Of a stretch of 12,694 nucleotides of DNA, positions 1 through 11,559 are shown piece by piece. The notes under the pieces were generated by a model. The model saw only the letters and a list, made by a program, of their open reading frames with translations, searched no databases and was not told where the DNA came from. The stretch is taken from positions 1 to 12,694 of IMG/VR virus record IMGVR_UViG_2529293249_000016; one strand, given 5' to 3'. The position numbers were made by a program, and so were the translations under genes. The stretch's first letter is position 1. The number at the start of each line of letters is the position of its first letter. Source of the DNA: a virus (Duplodnaviria > Heunggongvirae > Uroviricota > Caudoviricetes).

Positions 1-69
1 CACGCACTGTTTAACGAACCGCTGCAGGGCGAATCCGCCAATGCCAGCAATATTGTGGAGATTTTTTGA
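1..69 (+). CDS. 3' end of upstream gene, probably the terminase large subunit (P-like); partial, start lies outside the window
   Basis: Frame 1 is open from base 1 to a TGA at 67-69 that overlaps the portal ATG at 69-71 (TGATG). P2-family gene order places the terminase ATPase gene directly upstream of the portal gene. Frame 2 is also open to 80-82, so the frame choice is not certain. Confidence 0.35.
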   Translation, partial: HALFNEPLQGESANASNIVEIF

Positions 70-1094
70 TGGGAAAGAGTAAGAAGAACCGCGCTGCGGC
101 GACGAATCAGATCCAGCTTAAAAGTCAAACTACAGCCGAAGCATTCAGCTTCGGCGATCCCGTTCCTGTTCTGGACCGCCGAGAATTACTGGACTATGTG
201 GAATGCGTACAGATGGACCGTTGGTATGAGCCGCCCGTCAGCTTTGACGGACTGGCGCGCACCTTCCGCGCTGCCGTGCATCACAGTTCCCCGATTGCAG
301 TAAAGTGCAACATTCTGACCAGTACCTATATCCCTCACCCGCTGCTCAGCCAGCAGGCTTTTTCACGTTTTGTGCAGGACTACCTGGTATTTGGTAACGC
401 CTACCTGGAGAAACGCACGAACCGCTTCGGTGAAGTTATCGCCCTTGAGCCTGCGCTGGCAAAATACACCCGACGCGGGTTAGACCTGGATACCTACTGG
501 TTTGTGCAATACGGTATGACAACCCAGCCGTATCAGTTCACGAAAGGCAGCATTTTTCATCTGATGGAACCTGACATCAACCAGGAGATCTACGGCCTAC
601 CAGGTTATCTTTCTGCCATTCCGTCAGCCCTGCTCAACGAGTCCGCCACGCTGTTCCGCCGGAAGTATTACATTAACGGCAGCCATGCAGGCTTCATCAT
701 GTACATGACCGATGCCGCGCAGAACCAGGAGGATGTGAACAACCTCCGCAATGCGATGAAAAGCGCCAAAGGCCCTGGCAACTTCCGCAACCTGTTTATG
801 TACTCGCCTAACGGCAAAAAGGACGGGCTTCAGATCATCCCGTTGTCAGAAGTCGCGGCGAAGGATGAATTTCTGAACATCAAGAACGTCAGCCGTGATG
901 ACATGATGGCGGCACACCGCGTACCGCCTCAGATGATGGGAATTTTGCCGAATAATGTTGGGGGTTTTGGTGATGTGGAGAAGGCGAGCTGCGTCTTCGT
1001 AAGAAATGAACTATTACCACTTCAAAAAAGATTCATGGAAATAAACAGATGGCTTGGTCATGAAATTATAAATTTTGAAATATATACATTATAA
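69..1094 (+). CDS. Q: Phage portal protein, P2 gpQ-like
   Basis: ORF track 66..1094; the track start is a TTG, the first ATG is at 69 (MGKSKKNR...). Length of about 341 aa matches P2-family portal proteins and the position is next to the cos region. The last roughly 30 codons are conspicuously AT-rich compared with the rest of the gene. TAA stop at 1092-1094. Confidence 0.8.
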   Translation: MGKSKKNRAAATNQIQLKSQTTAEAFSFGDPVPVLDRRELLDYVECVQMDRWYEPPVSFDGLARTFRAAVHHSSPIAVKCNILTSTYIPHPLLSQQAFSRFVQDYLVFGNAYLEKRTNRFGEVIALEPALAKYTRRGLDLDTYWFVQYGMTTQPYQFTKGSIFHLMEPDINQEIYGLPGYLSAIPSALLNESATLFRRKYYINGSHAGFIMYMTDAAQNQEDVNNLRNAMKSAKGPGNFRNLFMYSPNGKKDGLQIIPLSEVAAKDEFLNIKNVSRDDMMAAHRVPPQMMGILPNNVGGFGDVEKASCVFVRNELLPLQKRFMEINRWLGHEIINFEIYTL

Positions 1095-1131
1095 AACCCA
1101 ACGGCATCACAATGATGCCGTTATGAACGAA

Positions 1132-2193
1132 TTAATATTCAAAATTATTTTCTTCAATAGAGAACTCAATCCCTCGGGATAACTTATCAATATTCACATC
1201 AAATGCGATATCTGTTAATTCACCATCCTCGATTTCATACATAACTTCAATTTCAATATCGAAACTAATCTCTTGAACTTCAGTTCGTGTGGTTGTCTCC
1301 ATTGGAATCATTACTTTATCTTCGCTATCCCAATACCCATTATTAAAGTCTGGACCAGAAACAGTAACTTCAAAATCTACAGAAACAGAGAAGGTCGCTA
1401 GACAATAATTATTGTCAATCTTAATTATTGATGGTTCAAAGTCATCAATATTGACGACTTCAAATGAATCCAATTCAGCGTCTTCCCAAGTTGAAACGTT
1501 ATATCCATCGGCATCATTGAGTTGGGCAATTACGTCCGCTCTTATGTCTTCACGTTTGCTTTCGATAAACTGCATCAATTTATTACTTAATTCGTTTGTA
1601 TGCGTATTGTATTCACCTAGAAACTTATCAAGTGAATCAATTTGATGAAGATTGTTTTTACCATCACAATAATTTTTTAAGTCACTATCCTCAGAAATGA
1701 TATACACATCTTCATCATTAACAAATCGCTCTACCGCAGCTAAATTGATTGCATCAGGAAACTCACTTTTTTTCTTATTTTGCCCAAATGGTGGTTCTTT
1801 GCCAAAGTATTTATCTAAAACCTCATTAAGATCTATCACTTCTATTGTAGCTAATTTGGCGTGACATCCTTTCAAAAAATCATCAAAAACTTTTTGTGCT
1901 GCTTCGTGAATTTCATGTTCGTTAAATTGCTGAAAAAAACCATGGAGCGGTCCATTATCAATACTATTCAAAAGCCTAGCTTTTCTTTGTACTGTGTTTA
2001 TAGCCTGCAGAGCATCCTTTATTGATTCCTCTATTTTACCTTTTACTTCTCTCTCTACAACTGTAGTTGTAATTAAGACTAAATCACCTTTCGCACATAA
2101 TTCATGGAAAGCTTTAAATGCTACCCCCTCAAAATGAAGACCAGCCTTTACGTACGTTTGTGTGTCAATAAATACCTTATTTGTTTTAAGCAT
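1132..2193 (-). CDS. AT-rich cargo protein of 353 aa with an N-terminal PIN-like domain (VFIDTQ start) and a very acidic C-terminal half; candidate anti-phage or toxin nuclease
   Basis: ATG at 2193 with AGGA about 7 nt upstream. N-terminus MLKTNKVFIDTQTYVKAGLHFEGVAFKAFHELCAKGDLVLITTTVVEREV resembles PIN-like nuclease folds (DUF4935-type); the C-terminus is D/E-rich. Strongly AT-rich and convergent with the portal gene, lying between portal and cos. Confidence 0.7.
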   Translation of the reverse strand: MLKTNKVFIDTQTYVKAGLHFEGVAFKAFHELCAKGDLVLITTTVVEREVKGKIEESIKDALQAINTVQRKARLLNSIDNGPLHGFFQQFNEHEIHEAAQKVFDDFLKGCHAKLATIEVIDLNEVLDKYFGKEPPFGQNKKKSEFPDAINLAAVERFVNDEDVYIISEDSDLKNYCDGKNNLHQIDSLDKFLGEYNTHTNELSNKLMQFIESKREDIRADVIAQLNDADGYNVSTWEDAELDSFEVVNIDDFEPSIIKIDNNYCLATFSVSVDFEVTVSGPDFNNGYWDSEDKVMIPMETTTRTEVQEISFDIEIEVMYEIEDGELTDIAFDVNIDKLSRGIEFSIEENNFEY

Positions 2194-2317
2194 ACTAATC
2201 CTAATAAGTTTTAAGATCCGCTACAATTGTTTATGTTTATTTTTTATCAATAATCATACGTAGTTAAGATTATCCATGTCGAAAAATTAAATCAACTTCA
2301 ATTTATCCTTAAGCGCG

Positions 2318-2339
2318 CGCTCGTATCCCCGCCACGCCT
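2318..2339 (-). other. Candidate cos cohesive-end site
   Basis: The reverse complement of 2318-2339 reads GGCGTGGCGGGGATACGAG..., which matches the first 13 nt of the P2/186-type 19-nt cohesive end (GGCGAGGCGGGGAAAGCAC in P2) as I recall it. The location next to the portal/terminase genes fits. Confidence 0.45.
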
Positions 2340-2387
2340 GCCCGCTTTATGTAGTGGTTTTCATGCAGGTGCATGATCTACGCAAAA

Positions 2388-2407
2388 GCCCGCCAGTTCT
2401 GGCGGGC
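2388..2407 (-). terminator. GC-rich hairpin (GCCCGCCAG / CTGGCGGGC) followed by TTTT on the - strand; possible terminator or cos-region structure
   Basis: Inverted repeat gcccgccagttctggcgggc; on the - strand it is followed by TTTTGCG. Confidence 0.3.
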
Positions 2408-2680
2408 CTTAGCAAAAACGATCCTCAAACGATCATGCAATCTCATGCAGCATAGACATGCACAGACGAGTAAAGCGAATCGGACCTTACGCAAGGTGAA
2501 CTCCTCAGCGGGCATAATCAGTATGTCGGAAGATCTCTAAAAATAAATAATTCGGTTAACAGGTATGCTTACAAAAGCATATATTTGATTAAAAATCATG
2601 TAAGGGGGAGGATCTCAAACTGAATCGCCACGGGTTTTACAAATTTCGATAGTCTCTCTAACGTTTCGGCTGAGGTCAAA

Positions 2681-3106
2681 ATGAAAAGCTTTTACGTATT
2701 AATTTTAATTCTGGTTGCAAGCTTTGTTAGCGTCCCAGTTCAGGCGGTAACAGCTAAAAACTATGAGAAAGGAACTAAAGCTCAACAGAAATCAATATCT
2801 TACCTTTCATGTGCATTCTATGGCAGTAGCACACAATTAGATCCTAGCTACACGGAGCAAGTACCTACAGCCGATATCAAGATATTACAGAAAGCAGCTT
2901 ACCACGCTTACAACGATGCGCTCTCATACTTTGGCTATGAGGAACCAGATCACGAACAACGCATAATTGATTATGCTGAATTTGTGGCGTCGCAAGAAGC
3001 TGTGTTATGGGATAAGCCGGGAATGAATGGAAAGCAGGTAACACTAATTGCTCGTTCTCTCTACAATGAGAGTAACTGTAACTTGTTACTGGACTCAATT
3101 AAGTAG
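2681..3106 (+). CDS. Small secreted or periplasmic protein (141 aa) with an N-terminal signal peptide; AT-rich moron of unknown function
   Basis: ATG at 2681 with GAGG 5-8 nt upstream. N-terminus MKSFYVLILILVASFVSVPVQA-VTAK has a hydrophobic core and an AXA-like cleavage site. AT-rich and located between cos and the tum-like operon. Confidence 0.65.
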   Translation: MKSFYVLILILVASFVSVPVQAVTAKNYEKGTKAQQKSISYLSCAFYGSSTQLDPSYTEQVPTADIKILQKAAYHAYNDALSYFGYEEPDHEQRIIDYAEFVASQEAVLWDKPGMNGKQVTLIARSLYNESNCNLLLDSIK

Positions 3107-3265
3107 GAAAAAGATGGTATTTTGCCCGTAGTTTCAACCTTAATCTCCGAACCTGTCGCAGAACGGGCGTTCACTCATCAAATAAACGCCACACCTAACG
3201 CCTCACTGTACTCGTTGTTCAACCTTGCTGACGCCAGAACCAAGTTCAGACGCCAGCAACTTTTC

Positions 3266-3499
3266 TTAATGCAGCCAGCTGTCGTCTTCCCACACCTTCT
3301 GCATAATCTTCATCACTTGTTTTCTTTCTTCGTCCAGTTGCAGTCCGGTCAGTTCCACACCGTTAGAGCTACCTTTGCGGATGCGAATTACCATTTTGGG
3401 ATACAGGGGGCGCAGATTGCGGTAAAGCTCGGATTCAAGGGCGTCCAGGGTAGACTGGCTAATCTTCTGCTCTTTATCGATCATTATTTCAATGCGCAT
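3266..3499 (-). CDS. DinI-family protein (77 aa), SOS-regulated; corresponds to the DinI-like C-terminal part of 186 Tum
   Basis: Internal ATG at 3499 gives MRIEIMIDKEQ...WEDDSWLH, which follows the DinI pattern (MRIEV...WE..D.W). GAGGTG lies about 8 nt upstream and overlaps the stop of the preceding ORF. Confidence 0.7.
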   Translation of the reverse strand: MRIEIMIDKEQKISQSTLDALESELYRNLRPLYPKMVIRIRKGSSNGVELTGLQLDEERKQVMKIMQKVWEDDSWLH

Positions 3500-3509
3500 A
3501 AAGGTCACC

Positions 3510-3698
3510 TCAGCTGATGACATCCATTGAGCGGTTGTATTCGTGGGTTCTGATTTTTGCCATGAGTTCATCAGTCAATTCAGAAACCCACTGCAGAGCC
3601 AGCCCCTTCTCTTCATCACTACACTCACTAGCCGCTACAAGCTTAAGAAAAAAATCAATGCGCTGGAGCTTCAAAGACTCCAAAAAATAGTCCTGCAT
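3510..3698 (-). CDS. Small protein (62 aa), first gene after the LexA box; candidate Tum-like antirepressor N-terminal module
   Basis: ATG at 3698 with a perfect AGGAGG 5-6 nt upstream. It lies about 43 bp downstream of a CTGT-N8-ACAG LexA box and directly upstream of the DinI-like ORF in a different frame. Confidence 0.55.
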   Translation of the reverse strand: MQDYFLESLKLQRIDFFLKLVAASECSDEEKGLALQWVSELTDELMAKIRTHEYNRSMDVIS

Positions 3699-3850: not shown

Positions 3851-6265
3851 TTAATACAGGTTCCGCCACTTATCATCTTCCTGCAAACGCTGGTTCCGAT
3901 AGAAGATACGCAGGCCTGCTCCTGACGGAATACTGCCGCCGCGAAGGAGTAAATCGACCTCTTTCTCGCTGCCATCAAATCCTCTGGACTTCAGTTCATA
4001 GACGAGCTGCTGTCGCTGATGGTCTGTAATTCGCTGTTTGTAGTCTTTACGCCGTTTCGGTTTCACCAGGCGTAACCTTGCAGCCAGTTCCCGGCGCTCT
4101 TTTTTGCTCATACTGTGCAGGTATTCGTGCAACTCCTTGTCATCCATGCGGGTAATGTCCGTTCTGGTATCCCCATCAGCTGATTTGTCTTTCCCTTGTT
4201 GGTTCAAATTTTCAGCAAGGGGACAGTTATTGCCACGAGTCCAAGGGGCGCAAGCGCCCTGGTCGGCTGCCGCCTCCTGAACGTCAACGGCTTTACGAAC
4301 CATTTTCCACTTTACTGCATGAGTGCAGATCTTGCCCTCTGCAATGGGTGACCAGATGCCATAAATACGAATGCCGTGATCGCCATAGGCGGTCGGCTCT
4401 TCGTTGATTTCATAAGCGGTTCTGATGAGGTGATATTTACGGGGAACCAGTACGCCGCCCTGCTTCATGATGTAGGTGGCAAAACAACCAGCATCAGCAG
4501 CAGCCAGAATGGCATCAAGACGCGGGTTATCCAGTACCGGCGCACCTGCTTTTTTGTCACCCTGTTGCCTTGCCGCCTGACCAGCCAGCAAGCGAAGTTC
4601 ACGGTAAGCCTGACGCCCCGGAATACCAAAGAAGCGGAATTGCTGAACACGATGCAGAGACGCCCAGGCATTCACGTATTCAGCGTTATCACGCAGAGAT
4701 TTACCCGTTTCCTTGCTGATCTCGCCAGCCAGACCACGACCGTCAATGTTCTTACTGATATATTTCGCGATGTAGCTTGTCGGCGTTCCTTTGCGCGGGT
4801 TAATCAACTCAGACTTAAAGCGCGGCCCAGTGTTATTGCCCAGCTCCTCGCGGTCTTCACGGATGGCAAATTTACGCAGTAATGCAGTGATGGCACGGCG
4901 GTCTTTTTTGCGCATGAAACACAACAGGTGCCAGTGAACTGTGCCATCATGATGCGGCTCAGCCACCCGCACGCCATACCAGCGCAACCCGGCTTTGTGC
5001 ATCGCCTTACGAAATGCAGCAAACATGCCGACCAGATAATTGCTGCTTTGTCTTACCGTCGCGTTTGTCCAGGTCGGGTTTGGTCTGCCGTTATTTAGCG
5101 TGGAATGGAAACGCGACGGACAGGTGATAGTGTAGAAAACGGCGCAGTCACCGCGCATTTCCGCGATAAGCTCCAGACCTTTAACACAGGCCATCATCTC
5201 ATTGCGGCGATGCGCAGGGTTGCTGCTGCTGGCGTTTACCACATCCTCCATGTCCAGCGTGTCGCCGTCTTCGTTCACCAGTTCATGAGAACGGAAAAAC
5301 TCCAGCGACTTACGGCGCTGCTCACGTTTATGCATCACGGCTTCATAGCTGACATAAGGAGATGCTTTTTTGCTGACCAGGCAAACAGCGCGCAACTGCT
5401 CTTCCCGCCATTCGCAACGCATCTTCCATAATTTCCGATACCACCAGTCGGCGCACAACATACGCGCCAGCGAACCCGGAATGAGTTCATAGGGCACGGG
5501 TTTACGGCGGTTTCTTTTCCGACGGAGTTGCTCAAACGCAGGTGGGATGACATCCAGACGCAGGGTTTCCGCTGCCACCTTTTCCCATGTCTTGCGGATT
5601 TCTTCTGGCTTAACGTCATCGGTGGCATACAAATCACCACAAGCTGCATCAAGGCACATACTCATATGCGCAGCTACCAGGGTGGACAGGCGTTTCACCT
5701 GATCCTGACTCATTTCAGGCAGGATCAGCAGGCCGTCCAGCCCTTCATGGCTTGCCATAAAGCGAAAAGATGCAGATAGCTGACTGTCGCGTACATGCTC
5801 CAGTCGTTCCAGACATGGCTTAATCGTCTCACGTAAATAGCGGGAATAAGCCTTTGGCCTGCCCAGGCTGCTGAAGTATTCAATACGTTGCATCAGCGGC
5901 TTGCTGATATGGGAAGGCTGGGCGTTGACGTCCGCCAGAATGACCATGTCTGAATTAAAACGCTGCTGCTCATGCGCCAGCTTTGCCCGGCTAATGAGCT
6001 TATCCTGCTCCATTTCGCGCTGGACAGGATCACGTGATTCATTAAAGAAATAACGCTCCCAGACCTGATCACTCAGTGCCTCGCGGCGCAACTGTTCCTG
6101 CTCGTTATCGGCAGCGTACAGAGTGATCAGGTTTGAAAGCGTAGAAACCGGCGCAACTTCCGCCGGGTCCAGATAAGGGTTAATGGCCTTTTTCGGGCTG
6201 TTCCATGAGAATGCTGCGGCAGCCTCGTTAAAGCCGCAGCAGTTGTTCATATCGGCATGACTCAT
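3851..6265 (-). CDS. A: Rolling-circle replication initiation endonuclease, P2/186 gpA family (804 aa)
   Basis: Large ORF at the expected position in the early operon. Contains the tyrosine-rich active-site-like motif [11 protein letters not shown] characteristic of A-type initiators. Its ATG (6263-6265) overlaps the Dam stop (ATGA). Confidence 0.85.
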
Positions 6266-7119
6266 GCACGTACTCCGTACACGGCAGAACTATCCACGCC
6301 ACGCGAATAATCAAATCCCATCCAGCAGCGCGGCCCGGAAACAGCAATGATTTCTGTTGCTGATTTACCCTCGCCAGCTGCCACACCGATGCTGCGTTTT
6401 ACCTTGATATAGTGGTGAGTAAAATTGCGATACAGCGAACGGATCAGGGATGTGTCACTGTTAGAAACAATGACCGGATGTCCTTCTGATGACCGATGTT
6501 CAAGAACGGATGCCAGGTGATACTGGTCATCTTCAGTGAAACCATCAGTGTGATAGCCGGAAAACGTACCGTCATATGGCGGATCGCAATACACCACATC
6601 TCCCGCCTTCAACATCGCCAGCGTTTCATCAAAGCTGGCGCAGATAAACGTTGCTCGCTGGGCTTTTTCTGCAAATGTGCGAAGTTCTTTTTCAGGGAAA
6701 TACGGATTTTTATAATTACCGTAGGGAATGTTGAAATGCCCGCTCTTGTTATAGCGACATAAACCACGGTAACCGTGACGATTGAGATACAGGAAATATA
6801 CCGCTTTCATGAAATCAGTAATTTCAGTTGAGCAGTTAAACTCCTGCCTTATGTTGTAATAAGCCACCTCCCTGTTTGCGATCTCAAATAAAACTCTGGC
6901 GCGAGATATAAACGATTCACAATCAGCGGCAACCTTTTTATAGAGGTTGATTAAATCAGGATTAATATCCGCAACCAGATAGCTGTGATAATCCGTTTCC
7001 ATCATCACAGCACAGGAACCCGCGAAAGGTTCAACCAGTCGCGGGCCAGCAGGAAGGTATTTTTTCAGTTCTGGCATAATGGCGGTTTTATTTCCCGCCC
7101 ATTTCAGGATGGTGCTCAT
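6262..7119 (-). CDS. dam: DNA adenine methyltransferase, Dam-like (D12 class N6-MTase)
   Basis: Internal ATG at 7119 ([11 protein letters not shown]...) preceded by GGAGG. Motifs EPFAGS (AdoMet binding) and DPPY (catalytic) are present. The track ORF extends upstream from a non-optimal start; I place the start at 7119. Confidence 0.8.
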
Positions 7120-7343
7120 ACAGCACCTCCGTTGTAATGTTTGCCTTTCAGTTCTGCGATTTCCTGACAGGTAATGCAAAGCTGCACTCCCGGAATGGCG
7201 CGGCGTCGTGCTGGCGGAATTGGCGCTTCACATTCAATGCAAAGTACGCGTGACACGCCCGGTGATTTGGCACGGGCTGCACGGATATGGCGCTGGCGTT
7301 CTTCTTCAACGCGCTGCTGTACGAGATCCATTGCATCAGCCAT
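7116..7343 (-). CDS. TraR/DksA-family C4 zinc-finger protein (75 aa)
   Basis: CIEC-x17-CITC zinc-finger spacing typical of the TraR/DksA family. Stop overlaps the dam start (ATGA) and start overlaps the upstream stop (TAATG), indicating translational coupling. Confidence 0.7.
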   Translation of the reverse strand: MADAMDLVQQRVEEERQRHIRAARAKSPGVSRVLCIECEAPIPPARRRAIPGVQLCITCQEIAELKGKHYNGGAV

Positions 7344-8406: not shown

Positions 8407-8916
8407 TCACAGCAAACCGAATGAAGCACCAAGGCCAGTCATGGTATCAACTGCACTCGCCATCGCAGGATTAGCCTGTAAACGGGCTTGCAATGAAACA
8501 GCAGCCAGCGCCATCAGTCGTGTTACAGAGTTAATGCTGCTGATAGCATCACGACGACCGGCACTAGTTTTTACATCACCAGATACCGCACCTGCTGCAA
8601 CACGCCCGATCTCTGCAGTTGCGCTCATGACGTAATGCGGCAGTTTCTCTTTTGCTACCTCATTAATCGGTACACATGGCAGACAATGAATCTGTGCCAG
8701 AAAACCATCTACCAACGTTGAATCTTCAGTCAGATCGGTAAGCAGCCAGATTTCTGGTGCGGTTAATAAATGAGGTTGAGCTGGATTCAGCTTGTTCCGC
8801 AGAATCTGCACATTCATGCCCGCACGTTCTGCCAGTTGCACCAGATTGTGGCGCAGTGCGAATGCACGACAGGCTTCATCAAAATGTGGATGTTTGGAAA
8901 CTTGGTAATCAAACAT
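8407..8916 (-). CDS. cII: Phage CII-like transcriptional activator, 186 type (169 aa)
   Basis: Internal ATG at 8916 ([19 protein letters not shown]...) with GAGG about 9 nt upstream gives 169 aa, matching the length of 186 CII as I recall it. Sits directly after the apl-like gene in the lytic operon. Confidence 0.75.
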
Positions 8917-8948
8917 GGTCGACACCTCTGATGTATCCCAAAATGGAA

Positions 8949-9170
8949 CTAGTTGAATACAACATTGCAATCAGTAAGTGCATCAACGGTAAGAGCAGCA
9001 AGGTTGATCATTACCTTTTCTCTTTTCTTGTCTTTACGAAGACGATGCCGAGGAATGCGACCATCCGCCAACATATCGTTGATTGTGTCGATTGAAAGAC
9101 CAGTAAGTTCGCTATAACGCTCGATTGTGACGTGTGGCGTATTCAGAGTTATTGAAATGTTAGGGGTCAT
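8949..9170 (-). CDS. Apl/Cox-like excisionase and transcriptional regulator with an AlpA/Xis-type helix-turn-helix (73 aa)
   Basis: ATG at 9170 with AGGAG about 11 nt upstream. [26 protein letters not shown] is a typical AlpA/excisionase HTH. First gene of the rightward operon, divergent from cI. Confidence 0.6.
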
Positions 9171-9265: not shown

Positions 9266-9862
9266 ATGTCAACATCAAAGTACCCAAGTGAGATCAAAAT
9301 AAATCCCAATAAAGGTGGTAAGGCTGCGATTGAGCGATTAGTCGAAGCCTATGGCTTTACGACACGACAGGCTTTAGCTGATCACTTGGAAGTATCAAAA
9401 AGCACACTAGCGAACAGGTATTTGCGGGATACATTTCCTGCTGACTGGATAATCCAATGTGCTCTTGAAACAGGAACCTCCCTCAAATGGTTAACTACCG
9501 GACAAGGCCTTAAGCAAAGCTCGCTGACAGCAGCTACAGAAGAGCTTGTTAAGTTTCGCCTTGCCGCAGGCAAAATGATTGAAGACGGTTCATATGTCTT
9601 CGATTCATCATTTCTTCCTGCAAACCTTTCATCACCAATTGTTGTTCAGGATGGACTCGTCACATACATTTGTGATCAAAAATTTTCTGAAGTACTTGAT
9701 GGAAACTGGTTAATCAATATCGACGGAACCTATTCCATTCGAAAAATCACAAGGCTTCCTAAAGGAATGATTAAAATTACAACAGCAGAGAATAGCTTTG
9801 AATGTGCATTTTCTGATATTGAAGTGGTTGCTTGTATAAGAAGTACAATAGTCTCGAATTAA
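9266..9862 (+). CDS. cI: Immunity repressor, 186 CI type (198 aa)
   Basis: ATG at 9266. N-terminal HTH region (RLVEAYGFTTRQALADHLEVSKSTLANRY...WLTTGQG) and a size close to the 192 aa of 186 CI. Divergent from the apl/cII operon and upstream of int. Confidence 0.75.
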   Translation: MSTSKYPSEIKINPNKGGKAAIERLVEAYGFTTRQALADHLEVSKSTLANRYLRDTFPADWIIQCALETGTSLKWLTTGQGLKQSSLTAATEELVKFRLAAGKMIEDGSYVFDSSFLPANLSSPIVVQDGLVTYICDQKFSEVLDGNWLINIDGTYSIRKITRLPKGMIKITTAENSFECAFSDIEVVACIRSTIVSN

Positions 9863-9882: not shown

Positions 9883-11559
9883 ATGAATTCATTTGCCATC
9901 GTTATACTCTTATTAGCATTTCTCGCCCCTGTTCTAGCTGTAATATTATTTAAACAAAGTAAAAAACACAAAGCGGCTATAGATAACCTGACAGCTAACA
10001 ACATAGCCCTTTCTAACCAACTGATTGAAAATCAAGAAAAACTAGCACAGACCGCACGAGAATTATCAGAGCTTGAAGGGCGAGCAGCACCATTGTGGCA
10101 ATACGAAGAATTGCACAGCGCAGTAATGGATGCAGAGAATAAGATAAAAAATGCGGACTCAATAGCCAAGCAAAAAATAGATGAAGCCCAAATTAAGGCG
10201 GCTAAAACAGTAAACGAAGCAAATTATCAAGCTCAGATGACAATAAGCAACGCTAATAGCGAAGCTATAGCAATCACCAAAGACGCTCGCGATGCACGCC
10301 TGAAAGCCAAAGAACGTCTTGATAATGCTAATAATAAAGCAAATGAGCTAATCTCAAATGCTAATGACAATGCAGTAAAAATTATTTCTGATGCAGAAGA
10401 AAGAGCAAAGGAGATTGCTGGTTCAGCATATGAAGCTAAAGAGTTTGCAGAAAAATATGAAGCAGTTGCAAAATCAATGAAAAATAAAATTGAAGGTTAT
10501 GGTGATGAATGGATCATCCCTAACCGTAGTGTACTTGATGAGCTGGCAGAAAATTATGAATTTACAGATGCAGGCAAGGAATTACAAAAAGCCAGAGAGT
10601 TAACCAAATCATTAATAAAAACTAATAAAGCTGCTTCGTGTGATTATGTTGAGCAAAACAGGCGTAATACTGCCATAAACTTTGTTTTGGATGCCTTCAA
10701 TGGAAGAGTTGACAGTATTTTATCAAAAGTCAAACACAACAATTTTGGAAAACTTTCCCAAGAAATAAAAGATGCATTTCAACTAGTAAATTACAATGGC
10801 TCTGCCTTTAGGTCCGCAAAAATAAGTGACATCTATCTTCAGGCAAGACTCAACGAGCTAAAATGGGGTGTAGCAGTTAATGAAATTATGCTCGAAGAAA
10901 AAGAAGAGCAAAGAAGGATTAAAGAACAGCTTCGTGAAGAGGAAAGAGCTCGTAGAGAATATGAAAAAGCGATAAAAGAAGCTGAAAAAGAAGAAAAAGC
11001 TATTCAGCAAGCTATAAATAAAGCAACGAAAGAACTTATGCTTGCAAATGAAGAACAACGCTTAGCTTTAGAGCAAAAAATAGCTGAACTACAGTTAAAA
11101 TATGAAGAAGCTGAAGCTAAAAATCAACGAGCTATTTCTATGGCTCAACAAACCAGATCAGGCCACGTCTATATCATTAGTAATATTGGTTCATTTGGCG
11201 AAGATGTATATAAAATTGGAATGACACGCCGCCTTGAACCACTTGATCGTGTTCGTGAACTCGGAGATGCTAGTGTTCCTTTTTCGTTCGATGTTCATGC
11301 GATGATTTATAGTGATGATGCACCATCATTAGAAAACCATCTGCATAAAGTTTTCAACGAAAAGCAGGTCAATAAAATTAACTCACGAAAAGAGTTTTTT
11401 AACGTAAATTTAAAAGAAATCAAATCAGTTATTGAAGACATGAACATCAACGCCCACTGGACAATGTTTGCAGAGGCGAAAGAATATAGAGAGTCTCTAT
11501 CTATTGAGCAGGAGCGCAAAGCAGCCACTTCCGCCAACGATGAACTACATGTTGCTTAG
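9883..11559 (+). CDS. AT-rich cargo protein of 558 aa: N-terminal transmembrane anchor, long K/E/A-rich coiled coil, C-terminal T5orf172 (GIY-YIG-like) domain; candidate anti-phage defence protein
   Basis: ATG at 9883 with AAGGA 7 nt upstream, 20 nt after the cI stop. Hydrophobic N-terminus FAIVILLLAFLAPVLAVILF. C-terminus GHVYIISN...YKIGMTRR...PFSF...RKEFFNV matches the T5orf172/Mug113 pattern. Inserted between cI and int, which are normally adjacent. Confidence 0.75.
   Translation: MNSFAIVILLLAFLAPVLAVILFKQSKKHKAAIDNLTANNIALSNQLIENQEKLAQTARELSELEGRAAPLWQYEELHSAVMDAENKIKNADSIAKQKIDEAQIKAAKTVNEANYQAQMTISNANSEAIAITKDARDARLKAKERLDNANNKANELISNANDNAVKIISDAEERAKEIAGSAYEAKEFAEKYEAVAKSMKNKIEGYGDEWIIPNRSVLDELAENYEFTDAGKELQKARELTKSLIKTNKAASCDYVEQNRRNTAINFVLDAFNGRVDSILSKVKHNNFGKLSQEIKDAFQLVNYNGSAFRSAKISDIYLQARLNELKWGVAVNEIMLEEKEEQRRIKEQLREEERARREYEKAIKEAEKEEKAIQQAINKATKELMLANEEQRLALEQKIAELQLKYEEAEAKNQRAISMAQQTRSGHVYIISNIGSFGEDVYKIGMTRRLEPLDRVRELGDASVPFSFDVHAMIYSDDAPSLENHLHKVFNEKQVNKINSRKEFFNVNLKEIKSVIEDMNINAHWTMFAEAKEYRESLSIEQERKAATSANDELHVA

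Follow-up and report, generated by a model that had tools for sequence, protein, structure and literature searches.

Gene context of the locus

The window (the whole stretch of 12,694 nucleotides analysed here) represents a P2-family prophage whose map runs opposite to that of P2. Its positions 1-68 are the 3' end of the gene for the terminase ATPase, intact and matching that of phage 813R9, and the small terminase gene M and the rest of terminase gene P lie beyond the window edge. The 3' end of P stands just upstream of the portal gene Q (69-1094, plus strand; 66-1094 for the Pfam hit), which is assigned from the Pfam family Phage_portal, from the PGAP annotation of a near-identical E. coli locus and from the layout of P2 and 186. 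The hotspot between cos and Q contains a cargo gene of 353 aa with a PIN_12 domain (1132-2193, minus strand; Pfam E = 1.1e-25). The replication gene A (3851-6265, minus strand; Pfam Phage_GPA, E = 2.5e-127) is found on the right-end side of cos, and beyond it Pfam identifies a Dam-class methylase (6262-7179, minus strand), CII (8407-8970, minus strand) and the CI repressor (9266-9862, plus strand). The order across the region of interest reads A, a DinI-like gene, cargo, cos, cargo and Q.

Escherichia phage vB_EcoM-813R9 is the closest phage record, with 99% identity across 84% of the window; Klebsiella P2-like phages come next. The chromosome of E. coli LR-25 has a near-identical A-to-Q interval, with an IS element in place of the terminase gene. 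An origin of the window from this disrupted prophage can be rejected, given that positions 1-68 correspond to uninterrupted terminase sequence. At LR-25, PGAP annotates a DinI-like gene and a 62-aa gene, both on the minus strand, where the window has a 131-aa plus-strand ORF that is probably spurious.

The cargo beside cos comprises in the window the PIN_12 gene and a 141-aa secreted-looking ORF, and in the relatives Hypoth_Ymh, AIPR, a retron St85 effector with its polymerase, a Cas2-annotated gene and, for Fels-2, a 565-aa hypothetical protein. For the cos-adjacent hotspot of P2/P4, Dodd and Egan 1996 is an earlier reference. The arrangement in the window resembles the defence hotspot that Rousset et al. 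2022 (PMC9122126) described next to cos in P2 and P4, with variable cargo placed on both sides of cos between gpA and gpQ, so that the PIN_12 gene and the 141-aa ORF can be assigned to a known cargo hotspot. It differs in that the defence hotspot concerns the neighbourhood of cos and not cos itself, and in that the PIN_12 protein of the window gave no match with PADLOC, nor with NCBIfam.

A conserved block with sharp boundaries

Within this variable surrounding lies a block of 151 bp (2313-2463) that was delimited from BLAST and from information content. It is read on the minus strand, which is the orientation of the P2 map, and extends from -125 to +25 relative to the inferred top-strand nick. 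BLAST similarity to the relatives (Fels-2 and P2-like phages of Klebsiella, Salmonella, Yersinia and E. coli) spans only about 2292-2463, and for most of them 2313-2463, with differing cargo on the flanks. Across 31 dereplicated cos sites, the information content drops to 0.14 bits/position past -125 and to 0.28 bits/position past +25. Of 5426 complete E. coli genomes, 1251 (about 23%) contain the block with a coverage of 80% or more; it is unannotated in them, and copies of 100% identity are present among E. coli chromosomes. An isolated phage that infects Yersinia, and also SEN8, carry the same cos. A structured RNA was likewise considered, for which Rfam gave no match anywhere in the window at gathering thresholds.

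Cohesive end and predicted nick sites

The cohesive end is the 19-mer GGCGTGGCGGGGATACGAG at 2320-2338 on the minus strand, as judged from column-for-column alignment with the ends annotated for P2 and 186, and from its identity to the published SEN8 cos. It is flanked on its right by AAAGCGGGCA (2339-2348, minus strand; -10 to -1), near-invariant in the alignments, and on its left by CGCGCGC (2313-2319, minus strand; +19 to +25). The latter appears as YGCGCGC in 14/14 cos sites that were collected without YGCGCGC as a search criterion. Read on the minus strand the order is AAAGCGGGCA, GGCGTGGCGGGGATACGAG and CGCGCGC, and the plus strand of 2313-2348 is accordingly GCGCGCG followed by CTCGTATCCCCGCCACGCC and TGCCCGCTTT. 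The preliminary description had seen the start of a P2/186-type cohesive end in the reverse complement of 2318-2339. The sequence match stands, whereas the start was misplaced by one base: that reverse complement is AGGCGTGGCGGGGATACGAGCG and so begins with AGGCG, and the end proper, GGCGTGGCGGGGA, starts from 2338 and not from 2339. The 19-mer reads toward Q, as it does in P2, and the placement between the A side and Q is shared with P2, 186, Fels-2 and the loci found in genomes.

By homology, the minus strand would be nicked between 2339 and 2338 and the plus strand between 2319 and 2320, giving 5' overhangs. The sequence records of SEN8 and of Erwinia EtG terminate exactly at the position homologous to 2339 of the window, which is the inferred nick. 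Direct reading of the heptamers immediately 5' of the inferred nicks gives GCGGGCA for the top strand and, read on its own strand, GCGCGCG for the bottom strand. The two look like symmetric half-sites for a nicking enzyme. The nick site of the window has partial twofold symmetry (GCG-GC-), the same as in P2, and this would be what a symmetric nicking enzyme needs. For annotation, the left end of the prophage can be placed from 2338, reading toward Q, and its right end at 2339.

Homology with the ends of P2, 186 and P4

We joined the record ends of P2, 186 and P4 to recreate their circular junctions and aligned these with the window and ten other phages. The cosL/cos features are annotated in the P2 and 186 records as 19-nt 5' cohesive ends; that of P4 was taken from the record ends. 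All elements align without a gap; going from right to left in phage orientation, TGCATNAAAAC (-29) is succeeded by AAGCGGGCR (-9), by the 19-mer and by YGCGCGC (+19). The window has each of these at the matching offset, and its G+C-rich end of 19 nt is homologous to GGCG(A/T)GGCGGGG followed by 7 nt. The claim of a P2/186-type cos site thereby receives strong support, position for position against the ends annotated for P2 and 186 and the record ends of P4, and from its A...cos...Q context, a layout also found in at least 29 of 38 genome loci with the exact 26-mer.

The 19-mer of the window, GGCGTGGCGGGGATACGAG, matches that of 186 (GGCGTGGCGGGGAAAGCAT) at 15/19 positions, with differences at 14, 16, 17 and 19, and that of P2 and P4 (GGCGAGGCGGGGAAAGCAC) at 14/19 positions, where position 5 differs in addition to those four. 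P4 and 186 differ from each other at two positions (5 and 19). Like the P2/186/P4 sites, that of the window is located between the A side and Q, and it shares with them the first 13 nt of the end (with T at position 5, as in 186), the flanks AAGCGGGCR and YGCGCGC, and the TGCAT boxes at -124, -111, -101 and -29. It differs from them at positions 14, 16, 17 and 19 of the end, in the box at -29, which is TGCATGAAAACC in the window and TGCATTAAAACC in P2, 186 and P4, and in the GATC sites at -96 and -85, which P2, 186 and P4 lack. P2 furthermore differs from the window in having neither the dyad nor the box at -36.

The preliminary description was right that the end departs from P2 and 186 at its distal positions, but this variant had already been published for SEN8. 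The identical 19-mer occurs in Fels-2, 813R9, several Klebsiella prophages and Yersinia phage MLG42, and the genome announcement of Salmonella phage SEN8 (PMC5427200) gives it as the cos of that phage. Other published variants are GGCGAGGCGGGGGAACGAG in SEN4 and SEN5 and GGCGTGGCGGGGAGACGAG in Smp131. The seemingly divergent end is understood as a known and common variant, because it is identical in SEN8, Fels-2 and many prophages and is present in about 23% of complete E. coli genomes. With the sites of Fels-2/SEN8 type the window shares the identical 19-mer, the CGCGCGC that follows it and the layout of boxes and dyad. The block is 94-97% identical to those of Fels-2 and E. coli phage 813R9, and the only differences from the Fels-2 type are in the flanking cargo and in a few spacer bases; in 813R9, boxes 2 and 3 are CGCAT as opposed to TGCAT in the window.

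TGCAT boxes at fixed offsets

Five hexamers TGCATG/CATGCA had been reported within the 130 bp next to the cohesive end, and all are present where they were placed. Their offsets are counted from the first G of the 19-mer and their conservation is given as mean bits/position over the 31 dereplicated cos sites. Two of them form a proximal pair: the TGCATG at 2362-2367 (minus strand, -29), whose TGCAT is found in 14/14 diverse cos sites (2.00 bits/position), and an inverted box at 2370-2375 (plus strand; CATGCA in phage orientation, with the ATGCA core from -36; 1.24 bits/position). The three distal boxes are direct and on the minus strand, namely box 3 at 2434-2439 (-101; 1.73 bits/position) and box 2 at 2444-2449 (-111; 1.59 bits/position), both at the same offset in P2, 186 and P4, and box 1 at 2457-2462 (-124; 1.21 bits/position), which is found within one base of that offset in these three elements and marks the outer edge of the conserved block. 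The spacers between the boxes have 0.47-0.84 bits/position, compared to 1.21-2.00 in the boxes. While the conservation of the 19-mer and of GCGCGC is partly circular, the loci having been selected with that pattern, so that their scores are inflated in the 38-locus and 31-site sets, the boxes were part of no search pattern.

Over the whole window the hexamer shows no enrichment (8 found compared to 12.9 expected; for TGCAT, 42 compared to 49), and the signal therefore consists in clustering: five of the eight TGCATG/CATGCA sites of the 12.7-kb window fall in the cos cluster. When the sequence was shuffled with its dinucleotides preserved, five non-overlapping hexamers within 101 bp were obtained in 1 of 10,000 shuffles; with overlapping sites also counted, which is less strict, they were obtained in 23 of 5,000.

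A possibility raised at the outset was that the repeats might not be conserved in related phages. The comparison speaks clearly to the contrary, with positions kept in P2, 186, P4 and dozens of elements. All five boxes are at the window offsets in 186, and the three distal boxes together with the -29 box are so in P2 and P4 (box 1 of P2 being one base off). The -36 box has the same offset in 186, in Fels-2-type sites, in ENT90 and in Ralstonia; P4 has a degenerate form of it (GTGCAA) and P2 has none. In Ralstonia phage YO139_2 the boxes are found at -110, -100, -36 and -29, and box 3 is shifted by one base in the sites of ENT90 and Ralstonia. The 38 genome loci, selected for the exact 26-mer and distributed over many Enterobacterales plus the betaproteobacterium Chitinimonas, show YGCAT(G/A) at the box positions of the window (for box 3, in most of them) with varying spacers, and the same combination of kept boxes and varying spacers is seen in 67 cos sites of P4-like satellites found via Psu homologues. 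In Aeromonas phage LPM4, three AGGATC repeats take the place of the distal TGCAT boxes, all three of which are missing. Since the box positions are conserved while the spacers vary, a role in terminase recognition is a reasonable reading, and the comparisons lend good support to the predicted binding of terminase to the TGCAT boxes. Among the papers that our literature search covered, none describes the TGCAT boxes or gpM binding at the P2 cos.

Ziermann and Calendar reportedly dissected the cos of P2/P4 in 1990 and arrived at a core of 55 bp. By our own count from the P2/P4 alignment, this core extends from the -29 box, which forms its outer edge, to the GCGCGC at +25, and the three distal boxes therefore fall outside it. 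The attribution of the 55-bp core to Ziermann and Calendar 1990 is found in passages of PMC5694545, PMC3931495 and PMC9594776.

A covarying dyad between the box groups and the question of transcription

Midway between the distal and the proximal boxes, the inverted-repeat search located a GC-rich dyad or hairpin at 2387-2408 on the minus strand, composed of GGCCCGCCAG, AA and CTGGCGGGC and followed by TTTT. Folded as RNA it has -25.1 kcal/mol (z = -4.98). In 52 distinct cos sites that align almost without gaps, 77.7% of the cells of the 10-pair dyad are complementary, compared to 28-44% after the partner has been shifted by 1-3 columns. Two of the pairs switch between GC and CG in roughly equal numbers and the inner CGCC...GGCG is nearly invariant. 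As judged from this alignment, most P2-type cos sites have conserved the dyad, though not all of them; P2 itself has neither the dyad nor the -36 box, and neither is therefore universally required. One may envisage the dyad as a bend, as a cruciform or as a dimer-binding site, and it may bring the box groups together or stop transcription across cos.

Given a hairpin of this kind, the boxes and the dyad might be taken for transcription signals (promoter, operator, terminator) that serve the cargo genes beside cos. The idea draws on the strong hairpin preceding TTTT on the minus strand of the window, on promoter-like hexamers that diverge from cos at 2282-2253 (minus) and 2556-2585 (plus), and on P2, whose annotated old-tin mRNA starts lie some 150 bp from the right end, which means that this promoter must overlap the distal boxes. 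The terminator scan, however, did not call the dyad, and the window has only UUUU after its strong covarying stem. The T-run is missing in the sites of 186, P4 and Chitinimonas, and because it is not conserved and P2 lacks the dyad, a terminator role would be lineage-specific at best. The promoter-like sites fall beyond the edges of the conserved block, with a frequency no higher than in shuffled sequence (10 found compared to 9.1 expected). The boxes hold their offsets from the nick regardless of the neighbouring genes or the orientation of these, and they persist in P4-like satellites, whose sole homology to P2 is cos (PMC9122126). On these grounds transcription is improbable as the main role of the boxes and dyad, and the overlap in P2 of the old-tin promoter with the distal boxes makes a dual use possible in some lineages.

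Discussion

Based on the collective evidence, the stretch 2313-2463 is best understood as the cos (DNA-packaging) site of a Fels-2-type E. coli prophage of the P2 family (Peduoviridae), which terminase would cut and in which the TGCAT boxes would be the recognition elements. We assign to this reading a probability of roughly 0.88. The identity as cos is based on homology, position, conservation of the boxes, block boundaries, covariation in the dyad and gene context.

It is very improbable that the block is a non-functional relic, in which the similarity would stem from recent ancestry or from recombination at a hotspot and the TGCAT cluster would have no function. P2-family prophages do decay, the closest E. 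coli chromosome (LR-25) having an IS element at the terminase gene, and cos-adjacent regions are known recombination hotspots. Against this, the conservation is punctate, in the boxes and not in the spacers, and it persists from Enterobacterales to Betaproteobacteria and from phage to satellite, in lineages with unalignable flanks. The dyad has been kept through compensatory changes, the window has an intact 3' end of terminase gene P that matches a sequenced phage, and the same cos is shared with SEN8 and with the isolated Yersinia-infecting phage. That the conserved stretch encodes a small protein, as a 55-aa ORF of the window (2373-2540, plus strand) and the hypothetical proteins (some of 48-50 aa) annotated over cos in several phage records might suggest, can be rejected as highly improbable, considering that any given frame, on whichever strand, is open in at most 9 of the 31 dereplicated blocks, that the ORF overshoots the conserved block by 77 nt and that the annotated ORFs of the relatives are on the strand opposite to that of the window ORF.

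Returning to the assignment as a cos site, a plausible course of events can be outlined. The phage genome would circularise and replicate, and the terminase, formed by homologues of P2 gpM and gpP, would recognise the block 2313-2463 and introduce two nicks 19 nt apart, at 2339/2338 on the minus and at 2319/2320 on the plus strand. The mature linear genome would then have the 5' overhang GGCGTGGCGGGGATACGAG at its left (Q-side) end and the complement at its right (A-side) end, and a unit genome would be packaged that starts at 2338 toward Q and finishes at 2339 on the A side. The TGCAT boxes on the right-end side, consisting of three direct distal boxes and the pair of an inverted and a direct box, are most likely the recognition elements of the small terminase.

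There exist analogies with the cos of phage lambda (cosN; cosB with R3-I1-R2-R1; cosQ). Both have a nicking site with partial twofold symmetry, and both have short repeats on one side, arranged as a proximal and a distal group split by a spacer. The two sites differ in that they have no sequence homology, in the overhang of 12 nt in lambda compared to 19 nt here, in the location of the repeats, which in the window are on the right-end (A) side of the mature genome, and in that P2 packages from monomeric circles, not from concatemers. The likeness to cosB, suggested in the preliminary description, appears reasonable and is to be taken as an analogy only, because sequence homology is absent.

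Regarding the end variants, the 67 Psu-linked cos sites of P4-like satellites comprise 53 with a 19-mer ending in AAAGCAC, 11 in AGAGCAT, two in GGAGCAT and one in AAAGCAT, and none of them has the ATACGAG of the window. Conversely, 113 of 119 viral-contig loci with the ATACGAG 26-mer are P2-like and none of the 119 has psu, sid or alpha; their only matches to P4 proteins are weak matches to delta in five P2-like loci, which are taken to be Ogr-like zinc fingers. The single P4-like case with an ATACGAG end is element L048 of Chitinimonas taiwanensis, the genes of which include a fragment of a P4-alpha-like primase, an AlpA-like gene, cargo genes and a P4-type integrase. From these counts the end variants partition by lineage. 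The partition is compatible with the effect on P4 cross-compatibility that had been supposed earlier, though it neither demonstrates this effect nor counts as evidence of incompatibility. Phage 186 can serve as a helper of P4 in spite of the two differing positions of their ends (5 and 19), and the two ends of a genome need only complement each other.

The cos block of the window contains three GATC sites, and those at -96 (2431-2434) and -85 (2420-2423) are kept in 13/31 dereplicated sites, all of enterobacterial Fels-2 type; the phage of the window encodes a Dam-class methylase. One may conceive from this a more far-reaching scenario, which we consider unlikely. In it, the 55-bp core would be only part of the signal and the full site would be a tripartite module of 151 bp, made up of the three distal TGCAT boxes, the covarying dyad, and the proximal pair with the nick region, and conserved among enterobacterial and betaproteobacterial P2-like phages and their satellites. 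The Dam-encoding Fels-2 lineage would have gained two phased GATC sites (-96 and -85), whereby packaging would possibly be sensitive to methylation as at the pac site of P1, and the distal 6 nt of the end would represent a possible lineage barrier between helper and satellite.

Lastly, the feature is an ordinary one that has already been described, and the comparative anatomy worked out here is a useful map and no discovery. With its conserved box offsets, covarying dyad and sharp block edges, it provides a mutagenesis map for the P2-type cos. The map could help in the design of P2/P4 cosmids and in studies of the specificity between helper and satellite, while knowledge of these phages is unchanged by it.

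Cargo and accessory genes

The defence hotspot between cos and the portal gene Q is occupied by a minus-strand gene for a 353-aa PIN_12-domain protein (1132-2193), noted together with a promoter-like site on the same strand (2282-2253). The protein, which PGAP names 'PIN domain-containing protein', had no match in PADLOC or NCBIfam, and its gene is regarded as a candidate for an uncharacterised anti-phage gene. A terminator-like hairpin (1099-1123, minus strand) separates the portal and PIN_12 genes where their ends converge. It is the positional counterpart of tQ in P2 and tW in 186, the position that Dodd and Egan named as the boundary for cargo replacement. The prophage has a second cargo or defence locus, a plus-strand gene for a 558-aa protein (9883-11559) that is flanked by the CI repressor and integrase genes. 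The protein combines DUF4041 with T5orf172/MUG113 domains (Pfam) and matches the PD-Lambda-1 anti-phage defence family in PADLOC (E = 2.8e-120).

On the side of cos facing the replication gene A, a plus-strand ORF of 141 aa (2681-3106) was noted together with a promoter-like site (2556-2585, plus strand). Annotated by PGAP as hypothetical (WP_000834899.1), its product shows a Sec-signal-like N-terminus, MKSFYVLILILVASFVSVPVQA, and lacks a match in Pfam, PADLOC and NCBIfam. The following plus-strand ORF of 131 aa (3122-3517) is probably spurious. It competes with minus-strand calls at 3266-3499 and 3510-3698, and at a near-identical E. coli locus RefSeq replaces it with such minus-strand genes, one DinI-like and one of 62 aa, in an arrangement resembling 186 tum and the DinI region of Fels-2.

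The closest chromosomal relative, a prophage of E. coli LR-25 (locus L134; NZ_AP027500.1, 1-475), is a defective copy, having an IS4-family ISVsa5 transposase in place of the terminase gene directly upstream of the portal gene; in the window itself, the terminase sequence is intact at this position.

Variation of the cos site, and satellites

Two GATC sites spaced by 11 bp lie inside the cos block, at 2420-2423 (-85 from the nick) and 2431-2434 (-96), and a further one is located at 2375-2378. The -85/-96 pair is retained in 13 of the 31 dereplicated cos sites, all of them enterobacterial and of Fels-2 type; the P2, 186, P4 and Chitinimonas sites lack it. This phage also has a gene for a Dam-class methylase (6262-7179), and methylation could possibly be linked to packaging. 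In the Aeromonas phage vB_AsaM_LPM4 (L013), three AGGATC repeats occupy roughly positions -130 to -90 relative to the cos nick. Because these stand where other P2-type cos sites have three distal TGCAT boxes, a swap of the recognition element in the LPM4 lineage is suggested.

The exact enterobacterial-type 26-mer cos core occurs in 4-5 copies per genome in the betaproteobacterial Chitinimonas sp. BJB300 and C. taiwanensis (loci L017-L020, L023, L037, L040 and L048). A VgrG-like gene adjoins cos in L017, and L048, comprising a primase fragment, an AlpA-like gene, cargo and a P4-type integrase, looks like a P4-like satellite. Two single viral contigs, IMGVR_UViG_2558860442_000001 (L129/L185) and IMGVR_UViG_2778261630_000008 (L104/L213), each contain two cos types: a psu-adjacent, P4-like satellite cos ending in AGAGCAT or AAAGCAC, and a Fels-2-type cos ending in ATACGAG. 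A satellite thus lies near a P2-like prophage whose end variant differs from its own.
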